IMG/VR virus record: IMGVR_UViG_3300025715_000012
Coordinates: 64,001 to 128,000 of that record
Strand: one strand, 5' to 3'
Origin: a virus
Lineage: Duplodnaviria > Caudoviricetes
DNA length: 64,000 bases
Part shown: piece by piece, positions 16,740-62,096 of the stretch
Layout of the letters: each line of letters begins with the position of its first letter
Numbering within the stretch: position 1 is the first letter of the stretch
Made by a program: the position numbers and the translations under genes
Notes under the pieces: model-generated
The model's database searches: none
The model's input: the letters and a program-made list of their open reading frames with translations, nothing else
Told to the model about the DNA's origin: nothing

Positions 16740-17069
16740 ATGAAACATATAAAATTATATGAACAATTTGACTTTGAAGACTTTTCTGATGAAGAACTTT
16801 TTGGAAAAGAGACGTTTAAACTCATTTTCAGTGGTCGTAGATTTTATATAGTAGAAAAAATTGAAAATAATATAGTTTTTTTATATAAAGGTTATAAATG
16901 GATATCTGATGAAAATTTAAAAAAATATTGTTTATTTTGTTTAGAAGAATTGGGAGAAAATGATGAAATAGCAATTTTTATCGGACATAATAATACGAAT
17001 TACCAGAAATATTGGGATATTTATACAAAAGATACATTACCAAAAGAAATAAAATATGAATTGAATTGA
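16740..17069 (+). CDS. DEELFG-leader cassette protein
   Basis: MKHIKLYEQFDFEDFSDEELFG...LPKEIK. Confidence 0.8.
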   Translation: MKHIKLYEQFDFEDFSDEELFGKETFKLIFSGRRFYIVEKIENNIVFLYKGYKWISDENLKKYCLFCLEELGENDEIAIFIGHNNTNYQKYWDIYTKDTLPKEIKYELN

Positions 17070-17470
17070 AACATATAAAACTATACGAACAATTTCATTT
17101 TGAAAACATTTTAAATAGAGATGGTTTTCAATTTATATCGCATTCAACTAAAGAAGATTGGGGTGAATCTATTTTAATAATGGAAAAAGAGGGAAAAGCT
17201 TTTGGTCGAATCTATTGGTATAATGATGATGATACTACAGTTTATCTTGATTGGCTCAGTGTAGATAAAGATGCCAGAAAAGGAGGATTAGGGACAATAT
17301 TACAAAAAATAAGAGAAGATATTGGTAAAGAATTGGGCGCCAAGTTCGCCTGTTTGTGGGTAAAAAAGGATAGTTGGATGCATGATTGGTATGAAAGAAG
17401 AGGATACAAAGATTATATGAATTATAAAGAAGATAAAAATTATATATGGATGCAAAAAACAATTGAATAG
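17066..17470 (+). CDS. GNAT acetyltransferase with CTS-like leader
   Basis: LSVDKDARKGGLGT acetyl-CoA motif; WYERRGY. Confidence 0.8.
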   Translation: MKHIKLYEQFHFENILNRDGFQFISHSTKEDWGESILIMEKEGKAFGRIYWYNDDDTTVYLDWLSVDKDARKGGLGTILQKIREDIGKELGAKFACLWVKKDSWMHDWYERRGYKDYMNYKEDKNYIWMQKTIE

Positions 17471-17791
17471 ATGAAGCACATAAAAATATATGAGCAATAT
17501 GATTTTGAGGATCTATCGGATGAGGAGCTTTTTGGAAAAGTTTCCTTTAAATTGATCAAGTTAAAAAATGATATATATTTTATATTAGAAAAAATTGAAA
17601 ATGGATATCTTTTTTTATATAATGGATATGAATGGAAAAAAGAAGAATTATATGAAGAGCCCAGCGTTAATATTGAAGATTTGAGTGATGATGATATAAT
17701 AACAACTCATGAAGAAATTAATGGAAATGGATTTTGGATGCGCTGGAATAAATACACGTTGCCAGAAGAAATAAAAGATAAGTTGAAATGA
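17471..17791 (+). CDS. DEELFG-leader cassette protein
   Basis: Leader plus LPEEIK end; paralog of 16740 and 61082. Confidence 0.8.
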   Translation: MKHIKIYEQYDFEDLSDEELFGKVSFKLIKLKNDIYFILEKIENGYLFLYNGYEWKKEELYEEPSVNIEDLSDDDIITTHEEINGNGFWMRWNKYTLPEEIKDKLK

Positions 17792-18132
17792 AACATATAA
17801 AATTATATGAACAATTTGATTTTGAGGATCTATCGGATGAAGAACTTTTCGGAATAGATAGTAATAAAGGACCTTATGATGATATTTTGATATACGGCGA
17901 TAGTGGGCCTAGTTTTAAATGTGGGGATAGAGTTAAAGTAATTAATAATGATGAATTTTATTATGAAGGAAAAAAAGGTGACATTGGTACAGTGATCACA
18001 TATAGTGATGGATCTTATTTAGTTTGCTTAGATGATTTTACTGCTGGACATAAAGGAGATCGTGATACAGATTATGAGGACACGGGTGGTGGTTTGTTCC
18101 AGAAGATCTTGAAAAATATGAAAAAAAAATGA
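17788..18132 (+). CDS. DEELFG-leader cassette protein, SH3-like; probable late frameshift
   Basis: Paralog of 61429. Confidence 0.75.
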   Translation: MKHIKLYEQFDFEDLSDEELFGIDSNKGPYDDILIYGDSGPSFKCGDRVKVINNDEFYYEGKKGDIGTVITYSDGSYLVCLDDFTAGHKGDRDTDYEDTGGGLFQKILKNMKKK

Positions 18133-18443
18133 AACACATAAAAATATACGAACAATTTAATCTTGATGACTTTTCAGATGAAGAGCTTTTCGGAAATGAT
18201 GACAATTATTTTCCAAAAGAAAATATAGAGAAATATTATTATGATTATAAAGAATTATTCAATCACACAAAATATGATGAAGAATACGGATATACAAATT
18301 ATGAATTATGGACTGAAGTTGGGCAATTGACTCTCAAATATAATCTCACAAGAGACGATGTCAAATGGATACTTGATAATAAAAACACGAGATTTGATAG
18401 TGATAAATTTCTAGAAGATACATATCTTCATTGGGACGATTAA
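18129..18443 (+). CDS. DEELFG-leader cassette protein
   Basis: MKHIKIYEQFNLDDFSDEELFG. Confidence 0.8.
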   Translation: MKHIKIYEQFNLDDFSDEELFGNDDNYFPKENIEKYYYDYKELFNHTKYDEEYGYTNYELWTEVGQLTLKYNLTRDDVKWILDNKNTRFDSDKFLEDTYLHWDD

Positions 18444-18768
18444 TTTTAATTAAAAAAAGTTAAAACAGGACTAAAACATTTTAATATATAATAATAAGTT
18501 TTTTGGTTATTGGTAGTTTCGAGTTTAAAGACTTTGGAAATGTTTTTAAAAAAAGCATTAAAGAAATTATCAAAACATAAATAAAAAATAAAAAGAAAAA
18601 GTGAGAAAAGTACCACTCAATAAATTACGCTTTCATTTATTTCCTCAATTTTTATTTGTTTTGACTCGAATATTTCCAATATATCAGAAATCGATATAAT
18701 TTGGAATTTGTTTATTTTTTGGCGCGCGAAAAGTAAGCATTTCACAAATAAAAAATAAAAATTATATT

Positions 18769-19632
18769 ATGGCACACTATCGAATGAGTGAAAGATTTCC
18801 ATCTGCTGTTATTACAAGCGGTGGAAACGAAAAGAAAATCTACAATGGTGGTTTTATCTATTTAAATGATGGAGAAAACTTCGAGATCCGATTTTTCAAT
18901 CCGACCCAGTTTAAACTTGGAGTTGAGATAATTTTTAACGGATATAAAAAAGGAGATGGTTATTTGGTTCTAAATCCTGGACAAGATGTCACGCTGGATC
19001 GTTTCTTGGACGAGCAACGTAAAATGGTGTTTGAGACATATACCATCGATGGAAATAATCAAGCTGCGGTTGAGGCGGCAGCCAATAACGGATTAATACA
19101 ATTTAATTTCTATAGAGAATCATATTTTAGATATGGCTCAAATACTGGATATGGTACTAGTGGATATAGTGGTAATAGCGGCACTCGCGGTTTTGCTGGA
19201 ACCGGTGGCGGTTTTGCTGGAACCGGTGGATTACCAAGATTTAAATCTAGCAATACAAATAGTCGTACATATTCTGATAACAACATTACATATTTTGATG
19301 CTGACTTTGAACAGGGCACTACGTCTTATACATCAAGTTTCACAACAACAATTGATTATGCTCCAGATACTATGTATAGAACATCAACATCCAATAGCAA
19401 TCCAGTAGAAACTGGAAGAGTTGAAGCAGGTGATGTATCCAATCAAACATTGGAAAATGTGTCTGTTCAATTTGAGACATCCCCAATGCATAGAATTAGT
19501 TATAAGTTGTTACCATACTCAGCTAAACCAATGGAGGTCACTGAAATAAGACAATATTGCCCGAACTGCGGATACAGAATTCGTAATAATAGTTGGAAAT
19601 ATTGTCCAAAATGCTCACAAAAAATTGAGTAA
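18769..19632 (+). CDS. Hypothetical protein with Gly-rich linker and C-terminal zinc ribbon
   Basis: CPNCG...CPKC. Confidence 0.75.
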   Translation: MAHYRMSERFPSAVITSGGNEKKIYNGGFIYLNDGENFEIRFFNPTQFKLGVEIIFNGYKKGDGYLVLNPGQDVTLDRFLDEQRKMVFETYTIDGNNQAAVEAAANNGLIQFNFYRESYFRYGSNTGYGTSGYSGNSGTRGFAGTGGGFAGTGGLPRFKSSNTNSRTYSDNNITYFDADFEQGTTSYTSSFTTTIDYAPDTMYRTSTSNSNPVETGRVEAGDVSNQTLENVSVQFETSPMHRISYKLLPYSAKPMEVTEIRQYCPNCGYRIRNNSWKYCPKCSQKIE

Positions 19633-19650
19633 AAAATAATTTATAAAAAC

Positions 19651-20271
19651 ATGAAAAAGAATATAGATATAATTTGTATAATAGATAAATCTGGTTCTAT
19701 GAGCCCCATAAAGAATGACGCCATAGGGGGATTTAATAGTTTTCTTGAAGATCAGAAAAAAGCTGAATATCAAGCTTTTATGACAATTGTTTTATTTGAT
19801 ACTCGATTTAAAAAAATATCTGATGAGATTGCTGTACAAAAAATAGAGCCTTTAAATGGAACCACTTATAGTCCTGGTGGCAATACCGCTCTATATGATG
19901 CTATCGGACAAGAGATCGATAACTATTTAGATTATTTAGCATCTTTACCAAAAGAAGAAAGAAGCGAAAAAGCTCTTTTTGTGATATTAACAGATGGGGA
20001 AGAAAATTCCTCCAAAATCTATCATAAAGAATTGATAAAGAATATGATAGAAGATGTGAGAGAAAATATCGGAATAGAATTTATTTATTTGGGTGCAAAT
20101 CAAGACTCGTTTTTGGCAGCGACAAATATAGGAATATCCGGTAATAATTCTTTCAATTATGCTGCAACTGGGGATGGAATAAAACTAGCCTACTCTAAGA
20201 TATCCGAGGCAACAGCATATTATTCAACAACAGAAGCCAAAGAAGATTTGTTTCAACAAGAAAAGAAATAA
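19651..20271 (+). CDS. von Willebrand factor A domain protein
   Basis: DKSGSM MIDAS, TALYDAI, LTDGEEN, FIYLGAN. Confidence 0.9.
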   Translation: MKKNIDIICIIDKSGSMSPIKNDAIGGFNSFLEDQKKAEYQAFMTIVLFDTRFKKISDEIAVQKIEPLNGTTYSPGGNTALYDAIGQEIDNYLDYLASLPKEERSEKALFVILTDGEENSSKIYHKELIKNMIEDVRENIGIEFIYLGANQDSFLAATNIGISGNNSFNYAATGDGIKLAYSKISEATAYYSTTEAKEDLFQQEKK

Positions 20272-20290
20272 TTTTTAAATTATTTTTGTT

Positions 20291-20323
20291 AAAAAAACCA
20301 GATTTAAAAAATCTGGTTTTTTT
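20291..20323 (+). terminator. Intrinsic terminator
   Basis: AAAAAAACCAGATTT/AAATCTGGTTTTTTT hairpin. Confidence 0.85.
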
Positions 20324-23278: not shown

Positions 23279-23608
23279 ATGAAACACTTGAAATTATATG
23301 AGCAGCTTGATTTTGAGGATCTATCGGACGAAGAACTTTTTGGTGATGAGAAAGATTTATTTCTAGGTAAAAATGGAAATACACTATATGTTTTATATGA
23401 TCCAGAATGCAAATCTGGAAGATTTAATAGATATTTGATGTATCGTGACCGATCAGATTATTATCCTTCGTATCCAAGAACTATTTTTACTCTGAATGTT
23501 TTGCCAGAAGAAAATTCTAAGATTGGATATTCATCTTATCAAGGTGGTATTCATTACACAACATGGAAAAATTTGGATCCAGAAATAAAGAAAAGAATAA
23601 AATTATGA
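23279..23608 (+). CDS. DEELFG-leader cassette protein
   Basis: Leader plus WKNLDPEIK end. Confidence 0.8.
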   Translation: MKHLKLYEQLDFEDLSDEELFGDEKDLFLGKNGNTLYVLYDPECKSGRFNRYLMYRDRSDYYPSYPRTIFTLNVLPEENSKIGYSSYQGGIHYTTWKNLDPEIKKRIKL

Positions 23609-23936
23609 AACATATAAAATTATACGAGCAATATGATTTTGAAGATCTGTCAGACGAGGAGTTATTCGGTAAACAAGAAAAAGATTTATTTTTAGGTGAA
23701 AATGGGGGGGGGGGGGGGGGGCATTGTATATTTTGTGTCCTTCTGATAATTCACTTGATGTTGTTATATATGATCATATGGATGGAGTTGGCAAAGAAAT
23801 ATACCCAAGAGCAATGTTCGAATATAAATTTATTGTTAAAGAAAATTCTAGAATAGCGTATTTAGAGAATCGCAGGTTTCATTATACAACATGGAAAAAA
23901 CTGGATCCAGAAATAAAAGAAAGAATAAAAATATGA
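23605..23936 (+). pseudogene. DEELFG-leader cassette frameshifted at a G18 tract
   Basis: Both halves align to 23279; G run at 23704-23721. Confidence 0.8.
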
Positions 23937-24253
23937 AACACGTAAAACTATACGAACAATTTGATTTTGAGGATCTTTCGGACGATGAACTTTTTGGTAA
24001 ACAAGAGAAAGATTTAACGATTGCAATATGTTCTGGTGATTATTATATTGTATATGCTTTTACAAATGAGATTCATATTTTTAATGAATACTTAACAAAT
24101 GATGATGAACCTGGATATCCTATGAGAATATTTCATTTCGCTGAATATGTCCCAAGAGACACCCAAACCATATGTTATAGAAAAGGGGGTAATACAGCTA
24201 GATGTCTATGGAAAGATTTGTCAGAAGAAATAAAAGAAAGAATACAAATATGA
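23933..24253 (+). CDS. DEELFG-leader cassette protein
   Basis: MKHVKLYEQFDFEDLSDDELFG...WKDLSEEIK. Confidence 0.8.
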   Translation: MKHVKLYEQFDFEDLSDDELFGKQEKDLTIAICSGDYYIVYAFTNEIHIFNEYLTNDDEPGYPMRIFHFAEYVPRDTQTICYRKGGNTARCLWKDLSEEIKERIQI

Positions 24254-24558
24254 AACATTTGAAAATATATGAACAATTTGACGAGAATGATCCTTGGGGT
24301 GAAGAGATCGTTCGTAATAATGACGAAATAAGACCAGAAATATATTTTACAATTGATTGTGATGGCGATATTGAATACGTGACTCCAATGGAATATGAAG
24401 ACTTTGTGGAAAATTTAGTAAATGGTGGAACTATACCTGTCGCTGAAAGAACCGAAGGAACTATATATCCAGATGGAAGAATTGTTTATCGGATTTGTAC
24501 AGAAGTCAGTGAAGATTGGAATGATGATGTTTGGGAAGACAACGAAGTATTTATTTAA
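24250..24558 (+). CDS. Cassette protein with hybrid leader (CTS plus DPWGEE)
   Basis: MKHLKIYEQFDENDPWGEE. Confidence 0.75.
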   Translation: MKHLKIYEQFDENDPWGEEIVRNNDEIRPEIYFTIDCDGDIEYVTPMEYEDFVENLVNGGTIPVAERTEGTIYPDGRIVYRICTEVSEDWNDDVWEDNEVFI

Positions 24559-24574: not shown

Positions 24575-24625
24575 ATGAAGAAACTGAAACTATATGAACA
24601 ATTTCGATCAGTATTTAGATGTTAA
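24575..24625 (+). pseudogene. Empty leader stub
   Basis: MKKLKLYEQFRSVFRC-stop. Confidence 0.6.
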
Positions 24626-24662: not shown

Positions 24663-25382
24663 ATGATAACCAAATATAATGAATATATTAAAGAAAACTC
24701 AGAATATAAACTCGATGGAAGAAATGGATTTTTTATGTTTTTGAAGACATTAGATGAGTTGAAAATGACATTTATAAAAACGAATCATTATTTATCAATA
24801 GGTAAATATTTATATTTTTTCACAACAGAAAATTTGAAAAACAAAGACTCTGCTATTGATATATTAGATGATGTCATTTCTCTAAAAGTTTTATCAAAGA
24901 CCTTGGAAGAAAATAAAGACAAAAGATTATCTTTTTATTTTGGCGTCAAAGGATATAGTTTTGAATACGGGCTATGTGATGATATGACAAGCGAAGTTTA
25001 TATGACGGGTGAATTTGTTATAGATAATAATTTTTTGAAAAGTTTAAAATCGTATAAATGTTTGGTTATGATAGAAGATATTCTAAAAAAATCTAATGTG
25101 AGAAACCTCATACTATTACACGAGATAAAAAATCATTTAAAGTCTTGGTATCCAGATAAAGGAAAACCAGTTATATTGAGCGAAGAAGTTCTAAAAAAGA
25201 CAATATCCAGATCTGATATAGGAGATGAAGCATATGATAAAGTGCTCTTTCGATATGAGCAATGGTGCGAAAAATATAAATGGATAGATAAAGTTTTTTA
25301 TTATCTTGATGATGACGAAGAGAAAAAAGAGATAACATTTTATATAAAAATTAAACCGAAAATTAAAGATAAAGAGTTGTGA
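24663..25382 (+). CDS. CTS-leader hypothetical protein; stop codon supplied by an IS-type end
   Basis: MITKYNEYIKE; TGA is the first triplet of the inverted repeat. Confidence 0.75.
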   Translation: MITKYNEYIKENSEYKLDGRNGFFMFLKTLDELKMTFIKTNHYLSIGKYLYFFTTENLKNKDSAIDILDDVISLKVLSKTLEENKDKRLSFYFGVKGYSFEYGLCDDMTSEVYMTGEFVIDNNFLKSLKSYKCLVMIEDILKKSNVRNLILLHEIKNHLKSWYPDKGKPVILSEEVLKKTISRSDIGDEAYDKVLFRYEQWCEKYKWIDKVFYYLDDDEEKKEITFYIKIKPKIKDKEL

Positions 25383-26675: not shown

Positions 26676-27203
26676 TTGAAACATTTAAAAATATACGAAC
26701 AATTTGACTTTGATGATTTTTCAGATGAAGAACTTTTTGGATTCAAAGACGACAATATAAAGATTGGTGATAAAGTTTATTTAATAAATGATGAAAACGC
26801 TCTCTATTATGAATATGGAGGTGAATTTGTTTCTTCGGCTAATAGAATTAATTTTTCTGAAGAAGTAAAAGATATACAATTTATAAATGGCGAGAAATGT
26901 TTAAAAATAACCGGACTATGGTATAAATCAAGTTGTTTTTCTCTTACATCATTATTGGCGAAAATATCAAAAAAAGAACAATATGATTTTGAAGATCTAT
27001 CTGATGAAGAACTTTTTGGTAAGGAACCATTTGATTATACTGAATTGAAAGTTGGAGATTTGTTAGAATTAAAGAATGGTGAAATTGTAGAAGTTTATGC
27101 GGTGCCAAACAAAACAAGTTCATTATTATACATATTTGGTAGAAGAAGTGGGATTAGAAAAATTGACACAGAAGAAATAAAAAAAGTTATCAAAAAGAAA
27201 TAA
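26676..27203 (+). CDS. Fusion of two DEELFG cassettes (two SH3/KOW-like domains)
   Basis: Leader at the start and EQYDFEDLSDEELFG again at 26976. Confidence 0.8.
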   Translation: MKHLKIYEQFDFDDFSDEELFGFKDDNIKIGDKVYLINDENALYYEYGGEFVSSANRINFSEEVKDIQFINGEKCLKITGLWYKSSCFSLTSLLAKISKKEQYDFEDLSDEELFGKEPFDYTELKVGDLLELKNGEIVEVYAVPNKTSSLLYIFGRRSGIRKIDTEEIKKVIKKK

Positions 27204-27248: not shown

Positions 27249-28877
<1,629 letters not shown>

Positions 28878-28885
28878 TTATTTTT

Positions 28886-29110
28886 TTAATTTTTTTTTAT
28901 ATTCTCCACAGTTACTATAAAACTCTTATACATGTCAGTTTCATTTTCTTCCATTACATATAATGGAGTTTTATTTTCCAATTTATCTGGATCATACATT
29001 ATTGGGGATATTTTTAGATTTTTAGAATCTAAAAAATCTCTAATCATATTTAATAAATCTTTTGTTTCCATAAACATTATTTTTTTTTTATTTTTCACAC
29101 CACAATTCAA
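28886..29110 (-). CDS. Hypothetical protein (start probably downstream)
   Basis: ORF within the groES-groEL run. Confidence 0.5.
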   Translation of the reverse strand: MNCGVKNKKKIMFMETKDLLNMIRDFLDSKNLKISPIMYDPDKLENKTPLYVMEENETDMYKSFIVTVENIKKN

Positions 29111-29576
29111 TCAAATCATTAATTGCTTCATCAAATGGTTTATATCTTTCATTAATTTCATCAAGCCTGGCTCGAACTCTTCTGACCAAATCTTTAGTTT
29201 TTTTATCACATTCTTCTGGGGTATCGCCATAAACATCATGTTCTAACGATCCTAACCATTCCTTTTTTATTGATTTATTTCGAAATATAATAATTTGTTG
29301 TAAAGCCTTTGGATAATTGTCTTTGCATTCGATATCATGTCCCCATCCTGCCCAATCAGAGTGACCTTTACATCCTGATGCGCCACTGATACCTGATTGA
29401 ACTTGATTTTCTGTGTTTTTATTCAATTTTTCAATTTCATTCTCTGTGAAAACCAACATTTTAACACCAGTTTTTTCACCATTTTTATAAGTGTCACAAA
29501 AACCATTTCCGTCTCGCTCACCGCAAGTAATTTCTCCATCACTTATTTCTTTTTTTCTTTTAAAAAATTTCATCAT
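29088..29576 (-). CDS. Hypothetical protein
   Basis: 162-aa ORF coupled to its neighbours. Confidence 0.6.
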   Translation of the reverse strand: MMKFFKRKKEISDGEITCGERDGNGFCDTYKNGEKTGVKMLVFTENEIEKLNKNTENQVQSGISGASGCKGHSDWAGWGHDIECKDNYPKALQQIIIFRNKSIKKEWLGSLEHDVYGDTPEECDKKTKDLVRRVRARLDEINERYKPFDEAINDLIELWCEK

Positions 29577-29761
29577 CCCTTAAATCCTATTTTTTGATGA
29601 GACCCGTCGCAATGTGGTTTTGATTTTGATGCTCCGCATCTACATAAGTAACATCTATGCGGCTCAGATATAGTTTTTCCATCATCTTGGACCAATTTAA
29701 TATCTCCTAAAATCATTATTGGCCCATCTTTCAAAATTGTCACAGATACTTTTTCATCCAT
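29573..29761 (-). CDS. CDGSH iron-sulfur domain protein
   Basis: LCRCGASKSKPHCDGSH. Confidence 0.92.
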   Translation of the reverse strand: MDEKVSVTILKDGPIMILGDIKLVQDDGKTISEPHRCYLCRCGASKSKPHCDGSHQKIGFKG

Positions 29762-29764
29762 AAT

Positions 29765-30055
29765 TTATTCCTCCTCTTTATTTAAAATACAATAGATATC
29801 ACTTTGTTTTATGATGTAATGTTTTTCATCACCGGCATTTAATTCTACGGATCCCCATTTTCTAAAAAACACATCATCATTAACTTTTACTTCCATCACT
29901 TCATCTTTAGTTCCGGGACCAACAGCCAACACTGTTCCTTTTAAATTATCATCTTCTTTTGCGGTTCCAGGTATTATTATACCACCTTTTGTTTTTTCTT
30001 CTGCTGGATAAGGTTTAACCAACACATGATCTTTCAATAGACTTTTTATTACCAT
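29765..30055 (-). CDS. groES: Co-chaperonin GroES
   Basis: EEKTKGGIIIPGTAKE, GTVLAVGPG. Confidence 0.95.
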   Translation of the reverse strand: MVIKSLLKDHVLVKPYPAEEKTKGGIIIPGTAKEDDNLKGTVLAVGPGTKDEVMEVKVNDDVFFRKWGSVELNAGDEKHYIIKQSDIYCILNKEEE

Positions 30056-45872: not shown

Positions 45873-47123
45873 ATGGTTAAATCTTTTCTTTCTTATATAA
45901 AAGAGGCCAACGACTATGTTATTTATCGCGTTGGGGATAATGTTCAATGCTATGGTGAAATGGATAGTATTAATTTTAATGGCGAAATTGGTACAATAAT
46001 TGAAGATGCGGGGCAAAATTGTTTGATCAGGTTTCCGACCAGATTTAATTCCAATTTACATAATGGTAACGGAAAAGATCCATCTAATAGTTCTTATTAT
46101 GTTCGAAAAAATTTATTGAGATTGATCAATGATGATAAAATTAGAATATTTTTATCTAACGAATTAGTTGGATTGTTGAAAAAAATGAAAGATTGTAAAT
46201 TGGCCGAATTATATTTGAGCTTATTAAATGGAGTAGATAAAGAATATGTAAAAGATGATTATGTAGATTTTCTAGACATAGAAAATGATAAGACCATATC
46301 ATTTCTAAAAAAGAAGTGGTGGGCTGAAGAAGCAGCCAAAATGTTCAGCAAAAGACGAGATAAACAAAGAATAAATAGAGTCATAAAACTCATATTGAAA
46401 GATGATTATGTTGACTCGATCATAAAACAAACTGATGTCGAACTATTTATGAACACACTAAACGCCATATTCAAACCATGTGAGGTTTTGGAGCTTCGTG
46501 GCGAAGACATGTTAAGGGCATTTAATTTTACAAATGAGTTGGATTTGAGAAAGTTTTCAGCATCTTGCGCCAATTATACTGGTGGTAAAAAAAATACTGA
46601 AAATTTTAAAATCTACACCGATAATCCAAAAAATATGGCAGCTATCGTGACATATGAATTTGGTAAAATAACAGGTAGAAGAACCATACAACAAGGACCT
46701 GTGACGAGATCTCCAAACGAGGAGGACATAGGCAAAATATATACATTCATTGGTAATTTCTATGGAGAAAATGGTGGTGGTTCGAAATATGATTTGGCAA
46801 TATTGAAATATATAAAAGAAAAATATCCATTTTCTGGTATGTCCACAGAAAAAAGAGGAATAACGATATTAATTGAAAACACTAGATTTCCACATTATCC
46901 GCCATTTGATGACATGAGGGTAAATTTCAAAACAAATGAAATGGGTTGTGTTGGGGGCGAAGAATGGCGAGATGCTTATGGGGCACGTTGTCCAGAAAAA
47001 TATCTAACAAACAAAGATGTATCAAAGGATTATGGTGAGACTGTCTATGTCTATGATGATGATGATGATGACGATGGTTATTATGATGGAGATGATGATT
47101 ATGTCGATGATGATGATTATTAA
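45873..47123 (+). CDS. CTS leader, SH3-like domain, divergent SCM-family domain and acidic tail
   Basis: MVKSFLSYIKE; LRGED...ASCANY...PPFDD. Confidence 0.7.
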   Translation: MVKSFLSYIKEANDYVIYRVGDNVQCYGEMDSINFNGEIGTIIEDAGQNCLIRFPTRFNSNLHNGNGKDPSNSSYYVRKNLLRLINDDKIRIFLSNELVGLLKKMKDCKLAELYLSLLNGVDKEYVKDDYVDFLDIENDKTISFLKKKWWAEEAAKMFSKRRDKQRINRVIKLILKDDYVDSIIKQTDVELFMNTLNAIFKPCEVLELRGEDMLRAFNFTNELDLRKFSASCANYTGGKKNTENFKIYTDNPKNMAAIVTYEFGKITGRRTIQQGPVTRSPNEEDIGKIYTFIGNFYGENGGGSKYDLAILKYIKEKYPFSGMSTEKRGITILIENTRFPHYPPFDDMRVNFKTNEMGCVGGEEWRDAYGARCPEKYLTNKDVSKDYGETVYVYDDDDDDDGYYDGDDDYVDDDDY

Positions 47124-47511
47124 AAAGGTATAAAAATTATGAAATATTTAAAGATATACGAACAATTTGATTTCGAAGATCTTTCAGACGAAGAGATCTT
47201 TGGTAGAGAGCCAAAAAATTTCGAAATAGGCGATGTTGTTCATTTTACAAGAACGAGTTCAGTGAGATGGAATACGGAAAAATTACAAAAGAATAAACCG
47301 TTGTGGTTAGATAGTACATTTTTTTCTAAAGAAAAATGGTTTGTTGTAACAGCAATAGGTCGTGTTGAAGATATGGATTTTATCAAGATTGTAGCATATA
47401 ATAAAAAAACAATTGGGAATCATCCGTATCAATTTTTCTGGTATGATGCTGACGCTTTTGAAAAGGTATAAAAATTATGAAATATTTAAAGATATACGAA
47501 CAATTTGATTT
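47123..47511 (+). repeat. 51-bp exact direct repeat (47123-47173 and 47461-47511) flanking one cassette
   Basis: AAAAGGTATAAAAATTATGAAATATTTAAAGATATACGAACAATTTGATTT occurs twice. Confidence 0.92.
47139..47471 (+). CDS. DEELFG-leader cassette protein, SH3-like
   Basis: MKYLKIYEQFDFEDLSDEEIFG. Confidence 0.8.
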   Translation: MKYLKIYEQFDFEDLSDEEIFGREPKNFEIGDVVHFTRTSSVRWNTEKLQKNKPLWLDSTFFSKEKWFVVTAIGRVEDMDFIKIVAYNKKTIGNHPYQFFWYDADAFEKV

Positions 47512-47602
47512 TGAGGATTATTATGAAGTTTTGAAAAGAGAGACTAAAAAAGAAATTATTTTTTTAACGTCTCATAAAAATCTCCGATCTTTATCTCTTT
47601 GA
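47477..47602 (+). pseudogene. Leader stub
   Basis: MKYLKIYEQFDFED, then runs into the antisense of the helicase gene. Confidence 0.6.
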
Positions 47603-48281
47603 TTTCCATAGTGTTCTTATTCTTTATAACTATTTGAGTATCAAACGATTCGCATTTACCCACATTTGTTTCCCCCATTAAAACATTAAAAGTCCCTTTA
47701 TCCCATCCACCACCAAGCAATAAATCAACATTTCCCCAACCAGATGATATTTTATTTACGGAGACTTCTTGTTTGTGAGACTCGGGATCATCAAAATCGG
47801 CTCCTAGATCTTCATCATCATCTTCTATGATAGACAAATTATTGTATATGGATTTAACTTGCGCCAGTACATCAGAAGCATTATTATAGTCTATTCCCTT
47901 TAAATTTCTTATTTTTTCAATGCTGTCATAAGCTGTGTTTTTCAATAATTTTTGAAGTTTCCAAGCTTTAAATTTGTCTTCTAACCACTCGGGATCATGT
48001 GAGCTATTGTCGTTTTTTAAAACAGCTTTTATTATATTATTTGATATTTTTTCCTCTGGATCACGAAGTTTTATCATAGCCAATATTTGCTGCGGAGCAG
48101 GAACTCTTTTTGATTTGCTTACCAAATATTCATCCCGCACGGTTTTATATATGAATTGTATGTCTTCATTATCAAAAAAGGTCGGTTCTATTTTATAGAA
48201 TTGTGTTGGATGATCCAATATCCAAGTAAAGAAAAATTTTTCCATTTGAGAGTTCATTACCTCCATATTCTCATTTGCCAT
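47556..48281 (-). CDS. Replicative helicase (gp41/DnaB-like) N-terminal part fused to a split intein N-fragment
   Basis: ISSGWGNVDLLLGGGW...MGETNVGK then CESFDTQIVI...IKIGDFYE-stop. Confidence 0.82.
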   Translation of the reverse strand: MANENMEVMNSQMEKFFFTWILDHPTQFYKIEPTFFDNEDIQFIYKTVRDEYLVSKSKRVPAPQQILAMIKLRDPEEKISNNIIKAVLKNDNSSHDPEWLEDKFKAWKLQKLLKNTAYDSIEKIRNLKGIDYNNASDVLAQVKSIYNNLSIIEDDDEDLGADFDDPESHKQEVSVNKISSGWGNVDLLLGGGWDKGTFNVLMGETNVGKCESFDTQIVIKNKNTMEIKEIKIGDFYETLKK

Positions 48282-48337: not shown

Positions 48338-48970
48338 ATGAGACATTTAAAAGTATACGATGAATATTTAAAAGAGGAAAAAAGTTGGTTCAATTTTTTA
48401 AAAAAACCAACGAAATATAAACCAATTCCAATTGACGAAAATGATCCTTGGGGTGAAGATACTCATAGAGAATATACTTTTGGTGATTGGTTTAAAAACA
48501 ATCGATCAAAAATAAAAAATTCTAGATTTCCTTTTTTAATAAAAACAATTGACTGCTCTCAAAGTATGATAACCAGTCTCAAAGGAATCGAGAAATTAAT
48601 AAATCTTAGTTCTTTGACCTGCGCAGGAAATCTATTAAGTGATTTAAAGGGAATAGAAAATTTAAAACATCTGGAAATTCTATGGGTCTATGACAACAAA
48701 CTGAAAAGTATAAAAGAAGTGAAAAATTTAAAAAATTTAAAAGAATTTTCTTGTTCTGGCAATCTATTAACAAGTTTAGAGGGAATAGAGAATTTGATAA
48801 ATCTTGAAAGATTATATTGCTATCTAAATCCAATAACTTGCGTCATTGGTATAGAAAAATTGAAGAATCTTCAGCAACTATATGCGTTTGGTGGCACTAT
48901 GTTTTCAGAAACATATAAAGAATATTTGAAAAAATATTGTAGGAAAAAAAATATAGGATATATAATATGA
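48338..48970 (+). CDS. Leucine-rich repeat protein with CTS leader and DPWGED tag
   Basis: LxxLxCxxNxLxxLxGIExL repeats. Confidence 0.85.
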   Translation: MRHLKVYDEYLKEEKSWFNFLKKPTKYKPIPIDENDPWGEDTHREYTFGDWFKNNRSKIKNSRFPFLIKTIDCSQSMITSLKGIEKLINLSSLTCAGNLLSDLKGIENLKHLEILWVYDNKLKSIKEVKNLKNLKEFSCSGNLLTSLEGIENLINLERLYCYLNPITCVIGIEKLKNLQQLYAFGGTMFSETYKEYLKKYCRKKNIGYII

Positions 48971-50898
48971 AAGTTAAAAAGATAAAAGATTTTAAGAGAA
49001 AAAACGTTTTAATATTTTCTGGATCGGCACGTTATAGAAATAATTGCCCTGGACAAGATAGCAAGACATTACAAATGATAAAGAGTTTGGATTTTCCAGA
49101 TTTCGATTTTGAAATTATAGATTTGTCAATAAAAGATGAAGATCCTATCATTCAACCTTGTAAAGGATGCATTTCAACGGCCGGTGGAGCGCACTGTCAT
49201 TGGACTTGTATAGGTGGTGATCAAAGAGTACAGACTGAATACGGATATAAAGAAATATCGCAGATTATAGAAAATGACATCTTATCTACCGGTTTGGTTG
49301 AAAAATCTTGGAATACTTCACCGAAAGAAAATATATATGAAATTGTTTTAACAGATGGAAGAAGATTAAAATGTACTAAAAATCACTATATAAAAACTTT
49401 AAGTAATAAAAGAATTAGAACGATTAATAGTTTATGGAAATTTTATAGAGAAGAAGAATATAAAAAACTAGAAGATATCAAAATAGGTGATTTTATGCCT
49501 GAACCAATTTTAGGAGGGAAATTTAAAGTTGGCGGAGAATATGATGAAAAATATTTTTTGATGGCGGGATTGATTTGGGGAGATGGAACATTTTGTAATG
49601 ATAGTTTAATATTATTTTATGATAATATAACAGAACCAGAACACGGTAAAAAAATACAAGAATTTTTTTCAGATTATATAATTAGTATAAAGGAGCATAA
49701 AACTAATATACAAGACGATTATATTAGAGAAGGATTTAGAACAAAATGTGAAATGATGAAAATAAATTTTGGTGCTAAAAATGGTAGGATTATAAAAAAT
49801 ATGGGATTTATAAAAAATTCCTCACATACTAGGAGATTGCCAGAAATACTGTTCAATTCTAATGAAATGGAATTGGGTTATTTTTTTAATGGCTGGTTTT
49901 CGACTGATGGATCAGTAAATAATAAAGGAATATCACTTTATAATGTGAGTTATGAATGTTTAAGAGATGCCCAATTATTATTGTTTAAGATGGGCATTAA
50001 ATCTAGTGTTTATGATATGAGAAAACACAAAACAATTGTGCGAGGAAAGGAATTAGAAAGGGCATCAATGTTATCAATAACAGGACATGATAATTTAATT
50101 TTATATAAAAATAAAATTGATTTTATTAATCCTTATAAAAAAAACCAATTAGATAAAATATTATCGGTTAAAACAAAAAGAATGAAAAACAAACCGCCTA
50201 AAGTAAAGGAAATAAATTATATTGGCGAAGGCCCGGTTTATGATTTAACTATATCTGGGACACACGAATTTATAACCGAAGGGATATTGGTTCATAATTG
50301 CGATTGTTATAAAAAAGATGATAAGGAGCATCCAGATTTTATGTATGAAAAAAATATCTATGAAAAATTGGAAAAATGCGATGCTTTTATGGTTATAACT
50401 CCAATAAACTGGTGGAGCGTTCCAACACAAGTAAAAGCGTTGTTTGATAGACTGACATGTGCATCTTTAACCATGACAACCGAGCAGGCTAAGAAAATTT
50501 TTGGCGAAAAAAATGTTAAAGATCCAGATGTGACAAAGCCTTTTTCAGAAACAGAAGAGTTCAAAAAAATAGCTAAGAATCATTTGGAAGGAAAGGTCGC
50601 TGGATTTTTTATTCATGGTGATGATGGGGCAGATGATTATGTGGATAAAAAAATACCAGATTCATATAAAAAATATAAACAAGGAATTTGGGAAGATCCA
50701 AAAAGTGCCATAATGCCGATAGTTTGGCAATGTAGATATATGGGTATAGATGTTCCAGATGATTTAATAGAATCTTTCTATATGAATGAAGAAATAAGTT
50801 ATAGCGAAGCCAATGATAAATACGAAAAAGGAAAACTTGATTTCGCAGTTGATAAAATGAATAATTTTGTAAAAAAAGTATATAATTACATAAAATGA
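48967..50898 (+). CDS. Flavodoxin-fold iron-sulfur flavoprotein or FMN reductase, intein-containing
   Basis: FSGSAR, PCKGCISTAGGAHCHWT/CDCY, TPINWWSVPTQVKALFDRL. Confidence 0.85.
   Translation: MKVKKIKDFKRKNVLIFSGSARYRNNCPGQDSKTLQMIKSLDFPDFDFEIIDLSIKDEDPIIQPCKGCISTAGGAHCHWTCIGGDQRVQTEYGYKEISQIIENDILSTGLVEKSWNTSPKENIYEIVLTDGRRLKCTKNHYIKTLSNKRIRTINSLWKFYREEEYKKLEDIKIGDFMPEPILGGKFKVGGEYDEKYFLMAGLIWGDGTFCNDSLILFYDNITEPEHGKKIQEFFSDYIISIKEHKTNIQDDYIREGFRTKCEMMKINFGAKNGRIIKNMGFIKNSSHTRRLPEILFNSNEMELGYFFNGWFSTDGSVNNKGISLYNVSYECLRDAQLLLFKMGIKSSVYDMRKHKTIVRGKELERASMLSITGHDNLILYKNKIDFINPYKKNQLDKILSVKTKRMKNKPPKVKEINYIGEGPVYDLTISGTHEFITEGILVHNCDCYKKDDKEHPDFMYEKNIYEKLEKCDAFMVITPINWWSVPTQVKALFDRLTCASLTMTTEQAKKIFGEKNVKDPDVTKPFSETEEFKKIAKNHLEGKVAGFFIHGDDGADDYVDKKIPDSYKKYKQGIWEDPKSAIMPIVWQCRYMGIDVPDDLIESFYMNEEISYSEANDKYEKGKLDFAVDKMNNFVKKVYNYIK
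49207..50298 (+). mobile_element. Intein with LAGLIDADG homing endonuclease (364 aa)
   Basis: C1 CIGGD, block B CTKNH, MAGLIWGDG, FFNGWFSTDG, VYDLTI..HEF..GILVHN followed by Cys. Confidence 0.93.
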
Positions 50899-57796: not shown

Positions 57797-58789
57797 AGAC
57801 ATATAATTATAATTCAATCTTATAGCGTTATCCAAACAATGTTCTTCTATTTGATTAGCATAATTTCTATCAAAATTATTTGATACGGCGTCGAGTTCTT
57901 GTAAATCTTTCAGCTCTTTTATTTCGTCTATATTGTTCAATTTATTATGGCTAACATCCAATATACCTAAACTAAAACATTTTGTTAAATGCTTTAAAGT
58001 GGTTATTTCATTATAAGAACAATCCAAATTGAATAAACTATAAGAATCTTCTATTCCACTAAGATTTTCTAGTTTATTATGCGAGCAATCAACATAATCC
58101 ATATTTTTGCCTTTTAACCAATGTAATGATTCTATTGAGTTATGCGAGCAATCTAAAATCGCTAAATTCTTTAAATGTTTTAAATAATATAAATTTTTTA
58201 TGTTGTTATATTGACAAGCCAAACTTTTCAAATTTGTGAGATTTTGAATACCGTCTAAAGAATCAATATTTTCTCTCGAACAATCTATAAAAGATATTTT
58301 ATTCCAAAACGATTTATCAGGATATTTTTTCTTTATGAATTTCATTAAACTGTTATCTTCTGGCTCAGCAAATTTAAAAGTATAGTTCTCTATTTTAGGA
58401 GATTTCATATTAAAAATATATATCAGATCATCAACACAATCCTCGATAAAAAGGCTATCATTAGAGATAATGTTATTGTTATATTTTTCTCCCCCTTTAA
58501 CAACAAAAACATTTACTTTATGCTGGTTAATTATAACTTTTTCTTTAGTATTTATATTATGAATTTCAATATAATTTCCATAATCTTTTATGACATCATT
58601 GATAAAATTCCTTAGAGTGTTTATATCTTCTTTACAAATATACCAAGCTCCTTTCAAGTTAAAAACTTTATTTTTTCTAAAATACTGCATAACTGGATCA
58701 TCTTTATGGGGTGGCAATAAAAGTTGTCCGGATTCATATACCCGATTCGATTTTAATTCACTAACAAATTTAGAATATGGACCTAACAT
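57788..58789 (-). CDS. Leucine-rich repeat protein
   Basis: LDCSHN.I..L repeats in the C-terminal half. Confidence 0.85.
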   Translation of the reverse strand: MLGPYSKFVSELKSNRVYESGQLLLPPHKDDPVMQYFRKNKVFNLKGAWYICKEDINTLRNFINDVIKDYGNYIEIHNINTKEKVIINQHKVNVFVVKGGEKYNNNIISNDSLFIEDCVDDLIYIFNMKSPKIENYTFKFAEPEDNSLMKFIKKKYPDKSFWNKISFIDCSRENIDSLDGIQNLTNLKSLACQYNNIKNLYYLKHLKNLAILDCSHNSIESLHWLKGKNMDYVDCSHNKLENLSGIEDSYSLFNLDCSYNEITTLKHLTKCFSLGILDVSHNKLNNIDEIKELKDLQELDAVSNNFDRNYANQIEEHCLDNAIRLNYNYMSLR

Positions 58790-58823
58790 ATTACATATAT
58801 ATTCTATTTAAAAAATGAATTTT

Positions 58824-59231
58824 TTATTCTTCTTCTCCCCAAGGATCATCCTCTGGACTCAAATTGCTTTTTTTTCTTTCTGTTTTATGATAAATGGTGT
58901 TATCAAAATTATTATCAATATATCTCCTTAAAATAACCTCGTAATATTTCGTGTTTGAAAACATCCTATCTTTCATTTCTTCGTAATATTTCTCAGTGGA
59001 TAATTGAGCAAAGGATGTTGCAACACCGTCTTCATAACGAATTTCGAATAAACCATAAGGTTCTTTAGTAACTTCATCGAAGCCTCCACCATCTTCTTTT
59101 AAAGTTCTATTATAACTATATCCACATTTACTACAAAAAATATATTCTTCATCGCTTTTGTAGTAATATTCATCAAAGCACTCGCTTTCACATCTCGGAC
59201 AAGAATAATCATATGATATAACGCTTCCCAT
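58824..59231 (-). CDS. Zinc-ribbon protein with C-terminal DDPWGEEE tag
   Basis: CPRC...CSKCG. Confidence 0.7.
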   Translation of the reverse strand: MGSVISYDYSCPRCESECFDEYYYKSDEEYIFCSKCGYSYNRTLKEDGGGFDEVTKEPYGLFEIRYEDGVATSFAQLSTEKYYEEMKDRMFSNTKYYEVILRRYIDNNFDNTIYHKTERKKSNLSPEDDPWGEEE

Positions 59232-59238
59232 ATCTTTT

Positions 59239-59505
59239 TTAATAATTAACTTTCATTAAAGATGTTTCATATAATAAATCATGTTTTATAACATAATCTA
59301 ATATGTTATCTACCTGCTTTTCAGTTAGATGTTTATTGGCTGCCACTGCCATAGCATAGGGAATTTCTCCGTCCTCACCCATATAGACAGAAATGATTTT
59401 TTTATCATATATTTTTAAGTTCTCTAAAATTTCATCCATATCGAGATCTTTAACGTAATCTCTATACGCGAAACCATAAAAAATTATATCATCGAACATA
59501 ATCAT
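59239..59505 (-). CDS. Hypothetical protein
   Basis: TAAATTTG promoter upstream. Confidence 0.55.
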   Translation of the reverse strand: MIMFDDIIFYGFAYRDYVKDLDMDEILENLKIYDKKIISVYMGEDGEIPYAMAVAANKHLTEKQVDNILDYVIKHDLLYETSLMKVNY

Positions 59506-59569
59506 AAGTGCAAATTTAATAAAAATATTTTAATATATACAAATAATAAATAAAAAAAAATGATATCAA

Positions 59570-59668
59570 ATGAAAAAATTTAATGAATTTCTATTAGAGA
59601 ATTTAAAATGGAAAATGAGAGATAGAGGCAGATATTTAGAAACCGAAGCACCCGATTTTAAATGGTGA
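59570..59668 (+). CDS. Short CTS-leader ORF (32 aa), possibly a frameshifted remnant
   Basis: MKKFNEFLLE; late motif at 59531. Confidence 0.5.
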   Translation: MKKFNEFLLENLKWKMRDRGRYLETEAPDFKW

Positions 59669-59746
59669 GAAATTTCTGGATCATTGTGTGGAATTGGGCG
59701 CTGACGTAGATAGTAAAGATTACAATTAAAAAAAAATATTAAAAAA

Positions 59747-60523
59747 ATGGATTCACAGACATTCAAAAAGTTTTTTGAAAACTCTAGCACATATCATTCT
59801 TTTACAGATATTTTAAATTTGGCAAAAGAAACATCAGATTATATCTACAACAACGATATAATAAAAAGTAAGTTGTTCAACTCCTTTAAAGAAACCGATA
59901 AAGGATTTCAACTCATTTTTGATAGAGTAGATAAAGATGATATATTTATAGACGCTAGCAAAAAGACAATTAAAGATAAAGAAGGAATAGATATAAATTT
60001 AGATAAAGCCTATAGTGACATCGAAGATTTATATAGAGATATCAAATTGGAATTTTATGTAAATATAAAACAGATGAACGAAGGATTAAAAACCTTTGAA
60101 AAGTTCGCTGGAAATAAAATAAAAACTTTCTCTGAAATGTCTTTGATAAATGAAAAATTTACAGAAGAGTTTGATATGAAACTATCAGATGATTATAAAT
60201 CTTTAAAGAAAGGAATTTTAGAATTAATTGATCAAACATTAAAAGGTGATGTTACAAAAATACAAAAATTTATCAATGATTATATTGAAGAAGACTCGGA
60301 AGAGGTCTTGGATGGTTTCATCGAAGACGCGGACATATTCGATACCTATTTGAAATACCAATCGGATATAGACGAATTGCTTGATGAAGAATTAAATTAT
60401 TTTAATGATGCTCCAACAGAAATTGGATTATATAATTATGTTGTTCGCGGAACATTTGAAGCAGTTGTCTATTGTATGAAATTAATAAAAGAAGAATTAT
60501 TTGGAAAAGAAGAAAATGAATAG
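59747..60523 (+). CDS. Acidic protein with leader-like repeats, ending in EELFG
   Basis: TFKKFFE, LKTFEKF, IKTFSEMSLINE. Confidence 0.7.
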   Translation: MDSQTFKKFFENSSTYHSFTDILNLAKETSDYIYNNDIIKSKLFNSFKETDKGFQLIFDRVDKDDIFIDASKKTIKDKEGIDINLDKAYSDIEDLYRDIKLEFYVNIKQMNEGLKTFEKFAGNKIKTFSEMSLINEKFTEEFDMKLSDDYKSLKKGILELIDQTLKGDVTKIQKFINDYIEEDSEEVLDGFIEDADIFDTYLKYQSDIDELLDEELNYFNDAPTEIGLYNYVVRGTFEAVVYCMKLIKEELFGKEENE

Positions 60524-60776
60524 AATTAAACTATACGAACAATTTGATTTTGAGGATCTCTCGGATGAAGAGCTCTTTGGTAAAAAAACTGCACCAGAAG
60601 TTGGAGACAGGATTTTAATTTTAGATACATTAAGATATTACGTTATTCGACATGAATGGGATAAAAATATGTTAGAGATCATAGGAAAAGAGACCTATAT
60701 CACTGAAATTTATCATAATAAATATTATATAAGAGAAGGTTGGTACGTTTATAGAGATTGTTTTGAAATAATTTAG
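60516..60776 (+). CDS. DEELFG-leader cassette protein (11555-type core)
   Basis: WYVYRDCFE. Confidence 0.8.
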   Translation: MNRIKLYEQFDFEDLSDEELFGKKTAPEVGDRILILDTLRYYVIRHEWDKNMLEIIGKETYITEIYHNKYYIREGWYVYRDCFEII

Positions 60777-60783
60777 AAAAAAT

Positions 60784-61074
60784 ATGAAACATTTGAAACT
60801 ATACGAACAATTTGATTTCGAAGACCTATCTGACGAGGAGCTTTTTGGTAAAAAAACTGAACCAGATATTGGAGATAAAATTTTAATTTTACCGAATTTA
60901 AAAGATTATATTTATGAATACAATTGGTCTGAAAAGATGTTGGATTTTATAGGAAAAGAATTTTCTATTACTAAAATAGTATTAAAAAATGATTATATAA
61001 GTCTTTATAATCAAAATAGATATTATATAAGAGATGGGTGGTTTATTTTTAGAGATTGTTTTGAATTAATTTAG
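60784..61074 (+). CDS. DEELFG-leader cassette protein (11555-type core)
   Basis: WFIFRDCFE. Confidence 0.8.
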   Translation: MKHLKLYEQFDFEDLSDEELFGKKTEPDIGDKILILPNLKDYIYEYNWSEKMLDFIGKEFSITKIVLKNDYISLYNQNRYYIRDGWFIFRDCFELI

Positions 61075-61081
61075 AAAAGAT

Positions 61082-61432
61082 ATGAAGCATTTAAAATTAT
61101 ATGAGCAATATGATCTCGAAGATCTCTCAGATGAAGAGATTTTTGGTGAAGAAGTGAAAAGAAATATGTTCAAAGCTAAAGAAGGATACTATGCTATTGA
61201 ATTGAAAAGAAATATGAGAGGCGAAAGACTTTATTTATATAAAGATTTTGAGTGGATTGATGTTGAAACTTATAATAAACATATTGTGAATGATTATCCG
61301 TTCTTTAACTTTGATGAATTAAATGATGATGATGAAATAATGATATATAATGATGGAATTTGGAATAAGCATAGAAAAAAAGATCTTCCAGAAAATATAA
61401 AAAAAGAAATAAATGATTTAAATTTTTTATGA
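61082..61432 (+). CDS. DEELFG-leader cassette protein
   Basis: Paralog of 17471. Confidence 0.8.
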   Translation: MKHLKLYEQYDLEDLSDEEIFGEEVKRNMFKAKEGYYAIELKRNMRGERLYLYKDFEWIDVETYNKHIVNDYPFFNFDELNDDDEIMIYNDGIWNKHRKKDLPENIKKEINDLNFL

Positions 61433-61761
61433 GACACGTAAAACTATATGAACAATATGATTTCGAAGATCTCTCGGACGAGGAGCTTTTTGGGACAAAT
61501 AGAGGACCTTATGACAATATTTTAGAATATGGTGAGAATGGACAGGAATTTAAAGCCGGTGATAGAGTTGTTTTAAAAAAAGATCAAAACCGACATTTAA
61601 GAGAAGGCGAGATAGGAACTGTAGTTTGTTGTTCTGCTGACGATTACTTGATTTGTTTCGATTTTTATACATATGGGCATGAAGGAAATCCAGATGAAAC
61701 TTATAATATACCCAGTGGTCACGGCTGGTATGTTCAAGAAAAATATTTAGAAAAGATATGA
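61429..61761 (+). CDS. DEELFG-leader cassette protein, SH3-like
   Basis: Paralog of 17788. Confidence 0.8.
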   Translation: MRHVKLYEQYDFEDLSDEELFGTNRGPYDNILEYGENGQEFKAGDRVVLKKDQNRHLREGEIGTVVCCSADDYLICFDFYTYGHEGNPDETYNIPSGHGWYVQEKYLEKI

Positions 61762-62096
61762 AACACGTAAAACTATATGAGCAATTTAATTTTGATGATT
61801 TTTCGGACGAGGAGCTTTTTGGTGGACCAGAGAAAGATCTAAATTTGATGGCTACCGCTGATGATGATGGTAACAATAGTTACTATGTTGTTAAAAAATC
61901 TTATAAGAAAGATCATTATGTCATTTTATTTGATGATGAATCCAATGTGGAGATTGAAGACGCTCTATTTGGAAACATAGATCCTCCACCTCCATTAGAA
62001 AATAGTAAAATTTCCGTTTTTGTAAATAGTAGAGGATTCGATGAATATAAATGGAAAGATCTACCTAAAGAAATAAAAGATAGAATAAATATTTAA
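61758..62096 (+). CDS. DEELFG-leader cassette protein
   Basis: Leader plus WKDLPKEIK end. Confidence 0.8.
   Translation: MKHVKLYEQFNFDDFSDEELFGGPEKDLNLMATADDDGNNSYYVVKKSYKKDHYVILFDDESNVEIEDALFGNIDPPPPLENSKISVFVNSRGFDEYKWKDLPKEIKDRINI

Follow-up and report, generated by a model that had tools for sequence, protein, structure and literature searches.

A 22-residue leader peptide shared by otherwise unrelated small proteins of an uncultured large phage related to the Mahaphages

Background

The internal proteins of phage T4 are diverse, yet they have a capsid-targeting sequence (CTS) in common (PMC3012670), and gp53 and gp54 of phage SPN3US begin with 15 identical residues within which cut motifs lie (PMC5694885). 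Here we describe a 22-residue leader peptide that fronts at least 17 small proteins, of eight body classes, encoded by a 147,412-bp IMG/VR virus contig (IMGVR_UViG_3300025715_000012; 28.7% G+C; approximately 219 predicted genes; completeness estimate 80%). The analysis centred on bases 64001-128000 of this contig, a 64,000-nt stretch referred to below as the window; positions are those of the window unless marked as genome positions. The leader is two-part, comprising a head, MKHLKLYEQF, and behind it an acidic module, DFEDLSDEELFG. Other proteins of the same phage carry a second acidic tag, DDPWGEE(NWGWEE). The source is an uncultured large phage, kin of the record-size "Mahaphages".

Like the CTS of T4 IPII and IPIII (MKTYQEFIAE), the leader stands at the N-terminus of small proteins that are otherwise unrelated and whose genes are clustered and, as with the polymorphic internal-protein genes of T-even phages, variable in content; the peptide is short, a hydrophobic-x-Glu motif lies within it, and the clade possesses a T4-like protease and scaffold core. 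The differences are considerable. The leader is twice as long as the CTS and bipartite, its acidic module is found between domains as well, C-termini may carry a second tag, the bodies are acidic, there are at least 17 copies, and the head stands on some 30 genes including those for enzymes. In T4 the DNA of both copies is the same, whereas the leader copies differ at synonymous sites. Packaging and cleavage are in the present case a proposal.

The resemblance to SPN3US gp53/gp54 and to the phiKZ gp93 family lies in diverged paralogs with a retained N-terminus bearing protease motifs; these phages are giants with many internal head proteins (PMC5694885). Their proteins, however, are large, have proteomic proof behind them and carry propeptides whose length is about 100 residues or more, whereas those described here are proteins of about 100 amino acids with a 22-residue tag, from a Bacteroidota-associated lineage of Mahaphage, PTm1 and PAU relatives. 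A different kind of parallel is offered by the clamp-binding tails of T4 gp43 (..SLDFLFG) and gp55 (..SLDFLYE), the classic case of one peptide, many proteins and one hub, which share with the leader an acidic context and S-x-acid-x-L-F-G (five of seven positions). Those tails lie at or near the C-terminus, unlike the leader motif, which is N-terminal or internal, and the likeness is short and was spotted post hoc. Lastly, the cargo-loading peptides of encapsulins are short and disordered, bring diverse cargo into an HK97-fold shell, and may stand at either terminus. Such an arrangement would accommodate C-terminal DPWGEE tags; the sequences show no similarity and assembly proceeds by another system, so that this is purely an analogy.

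Results and discussion

Conservation of the leader

The sequence-only reading of the window had listed 14 genes with the leader and one internal copy, and translation placed all of them where it had put them. A degenerate DNA pattern for DFEDLSDEE gave 16 matches in the window (0.01 expected), namely the 14 starts, the internal copy (26985, within 26676-27203) and a weak match within a body at 17669; the head pattern MKHxKxYEQ gave 20 (0.05 expected). Chance is thus excluded. Three further full copies lie outside the window on the same contig (genome 38386, 38727 and 133939, minus strand), and truncated remnants of the leader are present at 24575 and 47477. When 29 leaders of this phage and of related ones are aligned, E8, D14, S16, F21 and G22 are invariant, and M1, K5, Y7, Q9, D17 and E18 are each at least 90% conserved. 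The consensus of the acidic-aromatic module behind the head is [DN][FL][ED]D[LF]SDEE[LI]FG, the leader ending in F-G, after which the residue is variable.

What is conserved is the peptide and not, as first described, a DNA block of about 66 nt. At shared leader residues identical codons are used at a frequency of 0.578 (57.8%), against 0.587 (58.7%) expected from the codon usage of the genome, and the mean nucleotide identity between copies is 80%. Since the synonymous sites are fully randomised, selection acts on the peptide rather than on DNA or RNA, and the copies are old; the random codon choice excludes an RNA-level constraint. Strong selection has kept the leader peptide while its DNA has drifted to saturation. 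This bears directly on the proposal that conservation of the block is chiefly a matter of its DNA, which would serve as a handle for homologous recombination in the shuffling of cassettes, the peptide being incidental. Gene 47139 is flanked, at leader level, by a direct repeat of 61 nt with 95% identity; this repeat, the truncated remnants, and exact runs of at least 20 nt in 18 of 136 leader pairs would suit such a handle. Codon choice is, however, just as random as genome usage predicts, the longest exact run between copies has a median of only 12.5 nt, and the one breakpoint seen between strains (below) falls in a body and not in a leader. The handle is therefore mostly contradicted, a single recent scar excepted, and we consider it very improbable. 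The 61-nt repeat is a recent duplication or deletion scar: the copied stretch, 47120-47180, comprises 19 nt upstream plus the first 14 codons of the leader gene at 47139..47471 (singleton body, 110 amino acids), and the copy, followed by a 41-amino acid ORF, forms a leader remnant at 47458..47602 (both on the plus strand).

Position of the head, the acidic module and the second tag

The head opens about 30 of the approximately 219 genes of the contig (ca. 14%), its carriers including a GNAT acetyltransferase, deoxyribose-phosphate aldolase (DeoC), on which it forms a 16-residue extension, leucine-rich repeat (LRR) proteins, and proteins with the alternative acidic tag DDPWGEE. With [KY]EQ[FY] in front of it, the acidic module is also found inside proteins at domain junctions: in gene 26676, at residue 287 of the product of genome 37174, at residue 73 of that of genome 135527, in P0006 (three copies) and in P0038. 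The motif is repeated three to five times within the single proteins P0006, P0036, P0043 and P0044. The leader had been read as an N-terminal signal, and this stands for the majority: in 40 of the 45 proteins that the leader profile retrieved among 1.84 billion representatives, most of them 79-131 amino acids long, the best match begins within the first six residues. The internal copies at domain junctions do not agree with action at the N-terminus alone, as in the T4 CTS.

The second tag, in its extended form ..RKxNLxD-DPW[GNDSQ]EE-[DN]WGWEE[IV]xE, is found in about 25 other proteins, in N-terminal, internal/linker or C-terminal positions (window 3528-59231, e.g. 11555, 11874, 42114, 51688, 55172, 55548 and 58824; genome 50657-52462), and occurs five times in one 601-amino acid protein. 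LR756501, a relative discussed below, has a DPYGEE version. The two tags are interchanged on one domain type, since two leaderless paralogs of body family D (11555 and 11874, spanning 11555..12182, plus strand; BLAST, 34-39% identity to 60516 and 60784) bear the second tag at the C-terminus (..NLEEDPWGEENWGWE).

No family corresponding to leader or body was found in Pfam, NCBIfam or PHROGs, the matches being limited to weak PHROGs of unknown function with E values no better than 4e-4, and a literature search found no paper mentioning these leader and tag motifs in phages. What we describe is most likely a portable address peptide on small proteins of a huge-phage relative, for which neither a curated family nor a published description was found.

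Bodies

The sequence-only reading had called the bodies diverse. Eight classes are indeed present, but they are not freely diverse, falling by BLAST into five families and three singletons. Identity between bodies within families is 28-53%, and leader identity is far higher. The family C protein encoded at 23279 was modelled using AlphaFold2 from a 19-sequence alignment. Residues 1-20 have a predicted local distance difference test (pLDDT) value below 50, so that the model leaves the leader disordered, and residues 25-109 form a beta-rich domain that is confident in most blocks (10-residue block means of 61-92). In this model the leader is not part of the folded body. In all, it is fused to at least eight different small domains that are probably beta-rich. 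The family B model was poor (pLDDT 61). Foldseek searches with the body fold against PDB and BFVD returned no match at E<=0.001, and the ESM Atlas none; VIA-align gave MBT/Tudor/SH3-like barrels as best hits (Z 3.3, not significant), and profile searches of PDB gave nothing better than E=0.097.

Arrays

Three tandem arrays (16740-18443, 23279-24253 and 60516-62096) carry the constant leader on several unrelated small bodies, much as had been described. The reported ATGA overlaps are present at seven junctions, with TTGA at one more; TTG starts are found at 26676 and 17066. A full promoter pattern of the Bacteroidota type had no match near the arrays. The genes listed in the following are all on the plus strand.

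Array 1 opens with a leader gene of family A at 16740..17069 (109 amino acids). The GNAT acetyltransferase gene, which has the head only (LKHIKLYEQFHFEN) and a TTG start, lies inside the array at 17066..17470 (Pfam Acetyltransf_1, E=3e-8), and is followed by a second family A gene at 17471..17791 (106 amino acids), assigned, as was the first, by DNA pattern, alignment and BLAST families. The array continues with a family B gene at 17788..18132 (114 amino acids), a small GDRV beta domain, and one with a singleton body at 18129..18443 (104 amino acids), the 3' half of which is swapped in strain variants. Directly upstream, with a gap of 2 nt, lies a neck-like structural gene at 14227..16737 (836 amino acids). 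Behind the array (18769-20271) are genes for a zinc-ribbon protein and for a protein whose VWA domain has a DxSxS metal site; since VWA domains bind acidic ligands, the latter is a candidate partner of the acidic tags.

Array 2 consists of three family C genes: that modelled above (23279..23608, 109 amino acids), one at 23605..23936 that is in two frames due to an 18-nt poly-G run (23704-23721), and one at 23933..24253 (106 amino acids). In a 28% G+C genome such a run probably reflects an error of sequencing or assembly, although it might be a slippery, phase-variable tract; an independent ENA contig (L006) terminates exactly at this run. The next gene, at 24250..24558, has the head and the alternative acidic tag (MKHLKIYEQFDENDPWGEE). 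Further on, at 26676..27203, is a two-module gene (175 amino acids, TTG start) specifying leader, body, internal leader (KKEQYDFEDLSDEELFG, residues 100-116) and body; relatives hold a three-module homolog, P0006.

Array 3 comprises two family D genes (60516..60776, 86 amino acids; 60784..61074, 96 amino acids) and one each of family A (61082..61432, 116 amino acids), family B (61429..61761, 110 amino acids) and family C (61758..62096, 112 amino acids). It is closed by a gene for a 287-amino acid protein (62123..62986) with a head-like start, MKHLKLFEYF, and without the acidic module, for which no family match was found.

Relatives and variation

A near-identity DNA search of 50,697 phage records gave no match, and a word-based homolog search returned only this phage's own proteins, identical copies of which are also encoded by a contig of 193,754 bp. 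Compared along its entire length, the neck-like gene is 60% identical to one in LR756501, a huge phage of 735 kb; more distant matches are gp88 of Sphingomonas phage PAU and, in Tenacibaculum phage PTm1, a product annotated as 'neck protein'. LR756501 is a member of the Mahaphage clade, for which Bacteroidetes hosts are predicted (PMC7162821). There too the neck gene precedes an array of tagged small genes, with other heads (MIKTFDEFINES-like) and DPYGEE tags; the exact DNA pattern of the leader is absent from LR756501 and LR756502, which use these other heads and DPYGEE.

Five related contigs in IMG/VR contain two to eight leader copies each, in differing arrangements and neighbourhoods. Contigs of the same phage from other samples retain array 1, and two of the contigs compared (L007 and L008) are identical to the window up to approximately 18259 and unrelated thereafter, so that the 3' half of the array's last gene has been replaced at strain level. 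Array content, the constancy of which would have told against an expandable set of cassettes, thus differs among relatives and strains: the leader marks arrays whose content is variable between related phages and between strains.

The weakest profile matches come from a phage-like lineage of higher G+C content (the short metagenome contigs L023 and L024), in which adjacent genes start MRY[KSA]EL[IV]E, SD[DE]ELFG is repeated three to five times at domain boundaries, and one protein ends ..EDPWDSIE. These contigs are shorter than 3 kb; one neighbouring gene matches PHROGs of unknown function, and no homolog of the SDEELFG proteins was found in a cultured phage. Judged by its motifs, this lineage, which lies outside the clade of Bacteroidota phages, appears to have a tag system that is related or analogous.

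The capsid as destination

A peptide that is portable, disordered, under selection as a peptide and carried by many unrelated bodies is an address or docking peptide, and the leader is most likely a portable, intrinsically disordered address peptide of two modules. Where it leads is less certain. We tentatively name the capsid as the most likely destination, on the strength of the T4-like machinery of the relatives, the [LI]-Y-E motif, the enrichment of [LI]xE near N-termini, and the joining of array 1 to a structural gene.

Capsid targeting is feasible because relatives hold a T4-like portal, protease-scaffold and capsid module. One of them (G006), from the same kind of sample, has MKHLKLYEQF-DPWGEE genes 68% identical to those of this phage and encodes a portal, an 815-amino acid protease-scaffold and a capsid protein. 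In the scaffold part YSEYIAENVDKNI (YSEYIAEN) is repeated about 13 times, every unit closing with an I-A-E site of the T4 type ([IL]-x-E), and eight relatives keep the repeat. Across the Mahaphage clade the head protease is fused to some 12-13 tandem 13-residue repeats, Y[SA]EYIAEN[VL]DKNI, followed by an acidic Q/A-rich stretch and a C-terminal domain, as seen at L033:10004-12451 (IMGVR_UViG_3300009776_000018) and in L020, L021, L026, L030, L043, L044 and L052. LR756501 and LR756502 give a weak Peptidase_S77 signal (Pfam E ~1e-5, below the cut-off), and the PTm1 annotation reads 'prohead core scaffolding protein and protease'. The scaffold repeat is close to the T4 CTS, MKTYQEFIAE, two copies of which were confirmed in the T4 genome. 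That the protease of the clade would cut at [IL]-x-E we infer from the YSEYIAE repeats of the relatives. Covariation of head and scaffold repeat across lineages is uninformative, since the repeat is constant while the heads differ.

The leader has [LI]-Y-E at residues 6-8 in 16 of 17 copies, which fits a T4-type cut, and 14 conserved residues lie beyond it. The T4 CTS, which had been put forward as the precedent, is in these respects apt. Throughout this phage's proteins [LI]xE occurs at residues 3-14 in 27.9%, versus 13.3% +/- 2.2% at internal positions, and at the internal junctions of P0006 and 26676 I-K-E-Q or L-K-E-Q is retained in two of three.

On this proposal the leader proteins would be directed to the assembling prohead, where the leader would dock on the scaffold core in the manner of the T4 CTS and would be cut after [LI]-Y-E at residues 6-8. 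The small proteins would thereby remain in the head and might be ejected together with the DNA. A second docking element, one that would also work internally and at C-termini, could be provided by the acidic module and its interchangeable counterpart, DDPWGEE. That the arrays encode packaged and injected effectors, as originally suggested, is plausible, although we would put it at somewhat under an even chance; the wider picture of cassettes and a tag is partly supported.

Several observations weigh against the capsid. The Pfam models for T4 gp21 and gp23 had no match on the 147-kb contig; the head-assembly module lies elsewhere. Bodies are mostly acidic (pI 4.4-6.4 in 12 of 15), whereas the internal proteins of T4 are basic. 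Metabolic enzymes (DeoC, GNAT) also bear the head, and the 22 conserved residues far exceed the needs of a cut site. An N-terminal propeptide gives no account of the second tag at C-termini, nor of the acidic module as an internal and, in other lineages, multi-copy inter-domain motif. A profile of the scaffold repeat places the leader only within the top 0.6-8% of 41,556 sequence windows, and far better scores are reached by other N-terminal sequences of this phage. These make up a third N-terminus class (MITKYNEYIKEN, MLIKFEDYLGES, MDMKKWNEFVNEN and similar) with a close match to the T4 CTS and to the YSEYIAEN repeat, found at 24663 (MITKYNEYIKEN), 20362, 20819, 10695, 12194 (minus) and 45873, and at genome 32616 (minus) and 139233 (minus); by their sequence they look like the strongest CTS-like candidates in the genome. 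The internal and C-terminal tags, the acidic bodies, the head on enzymes and the result with the scaffold profile fit docking by a general short linear motif equally well.

Alternative explanations

The leader may accordingly be weighed as a short linear motif by which proteins would dock on a hub in the cytoplasm, belonging to phage or host (for example a sliding clamp, a chaperone or the polymerase), with no packaging involved. Its acidic, disordered character and conserved aromatics are how short linear motifs behave, its position is not fixed (the second tag extending this to C-termini), it may be repeated three to five times in one protein, and it has a counterpart, MRYxELIE..SD[DE]ELFG, in the distant higher-GC lineage. 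Within one body family either the leader tag or the second tag may be present, the S-D-E-E-L-F-G that ends the leader agrees with the clamp-binding tails of T4 gp43 (..ASLDFLFG) and gp55 in S, an acidic residue, L, F and G, and enzymes bearing the head would be expected in the cytoplasm. No hub protein was identified, however; clamps of the gp45 type (PF02916) or DnaN type (PF02768) were not found in the contigs, nor PF02916 in the complete 735-kb LR756501, although a divergent clamp or that of the host is conceivable, and no replication protein bears the motif, E[LI]FG being almost exclusively confined to the leader. The T4 clamp motif is moreover C-terminal, and it is not evident why at least 17 small paralogs should converge on one hub. 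We regard such a hub as rather unlikely, while taking it seriously. A combined form, in which Mahaphage-related huge phages would use a peptide address code, is more doubtful: a generic head plus interchangeable DFEDLSDEELFG and DDPWGEE-NWGWEE motifs would connect dozens of proteins (small beta-barrels, LRR proteins, enzymes) with one or two hubs, and the motifs could act at either terminus and between domains, the hubs perhaps being the prohead core or a clamp-like platform. It would be a virus-encoded network of short linear motifs, to which the SD[DE]ELFG system of at least one unrelated phage lineage would be analogous.

It is improbable that the leader has no targeting role at all, being a lineage-specific N-terminal extension inherited by duplication or capture and kept for solubility, expression or masking of a small domain. 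The head is generic (some 14% of genes), most copies lie in tandem arrays born of duplication, the leader is disordered, and starts of the Bacteroidota type, without a Shine-Dalgarno sequence, prefer A-rich 5' coding regions; all this would suit such an extension. But solubility or expression would not fix five residues, and six more at 90% or above, across saturated synonymous divergence, the codon data leave no RNA-level constraint, and the motif is retained at internal junctions and in another lineage. L-S-D-E-E-L also recalls the consensus of double-glycine leaders (LSxxELxxIxGG), which serve for export of class II bacteriocins and peptide pheromones and would here imply secretion through a peptidase-containing ABC transporter of the host; leader length and product size are similar. 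There is, though, no Gly-Gly at the correct spacing, the leader families of NCBIfam and Pfam gave no match at E<=1 or 0.1, and the C39 peptidase (PF03412) is absent from five related contigs (controls positive in 7 of 14 genomes), although a host-encoded one is possible. Internal copies and enzymes with the head only do not fit either, and this candidate, extremely improbable in our estimate, was rejected.

Other genes

The phage has its own GroEL and GroES, DnaJ, and an Hsp70 apparently split by an inserted ORF (27249-30055 and 9638-10642; genome 737-4045), and encodes a PPK2 polyphosphate kinase at 2305-3516. A replicative-helicase-like gene (47556-48281) stops shortly past its Walker A motif, and a 643-amino acid gene (48967-50898) has an intein-like insertion (C..HNC), noted by eye only. 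A 3524-amino acid ORF crosses the window start (1-1848, continuing to genome 55274), the last part of the window, from 63344 onward, encodes three LamG/concanavalin-like paralogs, and collagen-like proteins are encoded at the end of the contig; these are probably fibres or decoration.

Significance

Should the leader load the capsid, the cargo list of an uncultured clade of huge phages would be readable from sequence alone, and its 22 residues would be a handle for packaging foreign proteins. Should it dock on a cytoplasmic hub, it would rank among the earliest extensive systems of short linear motifs to be described from a bacterial virus. In both cases it offers an experimental entry to between about 17 genes of unknown function (those with the leader tag) and 50 (including related tags), and suggests that huge phages may arrange part of their dark proteome by means of peptide tags, and not by operons alone.

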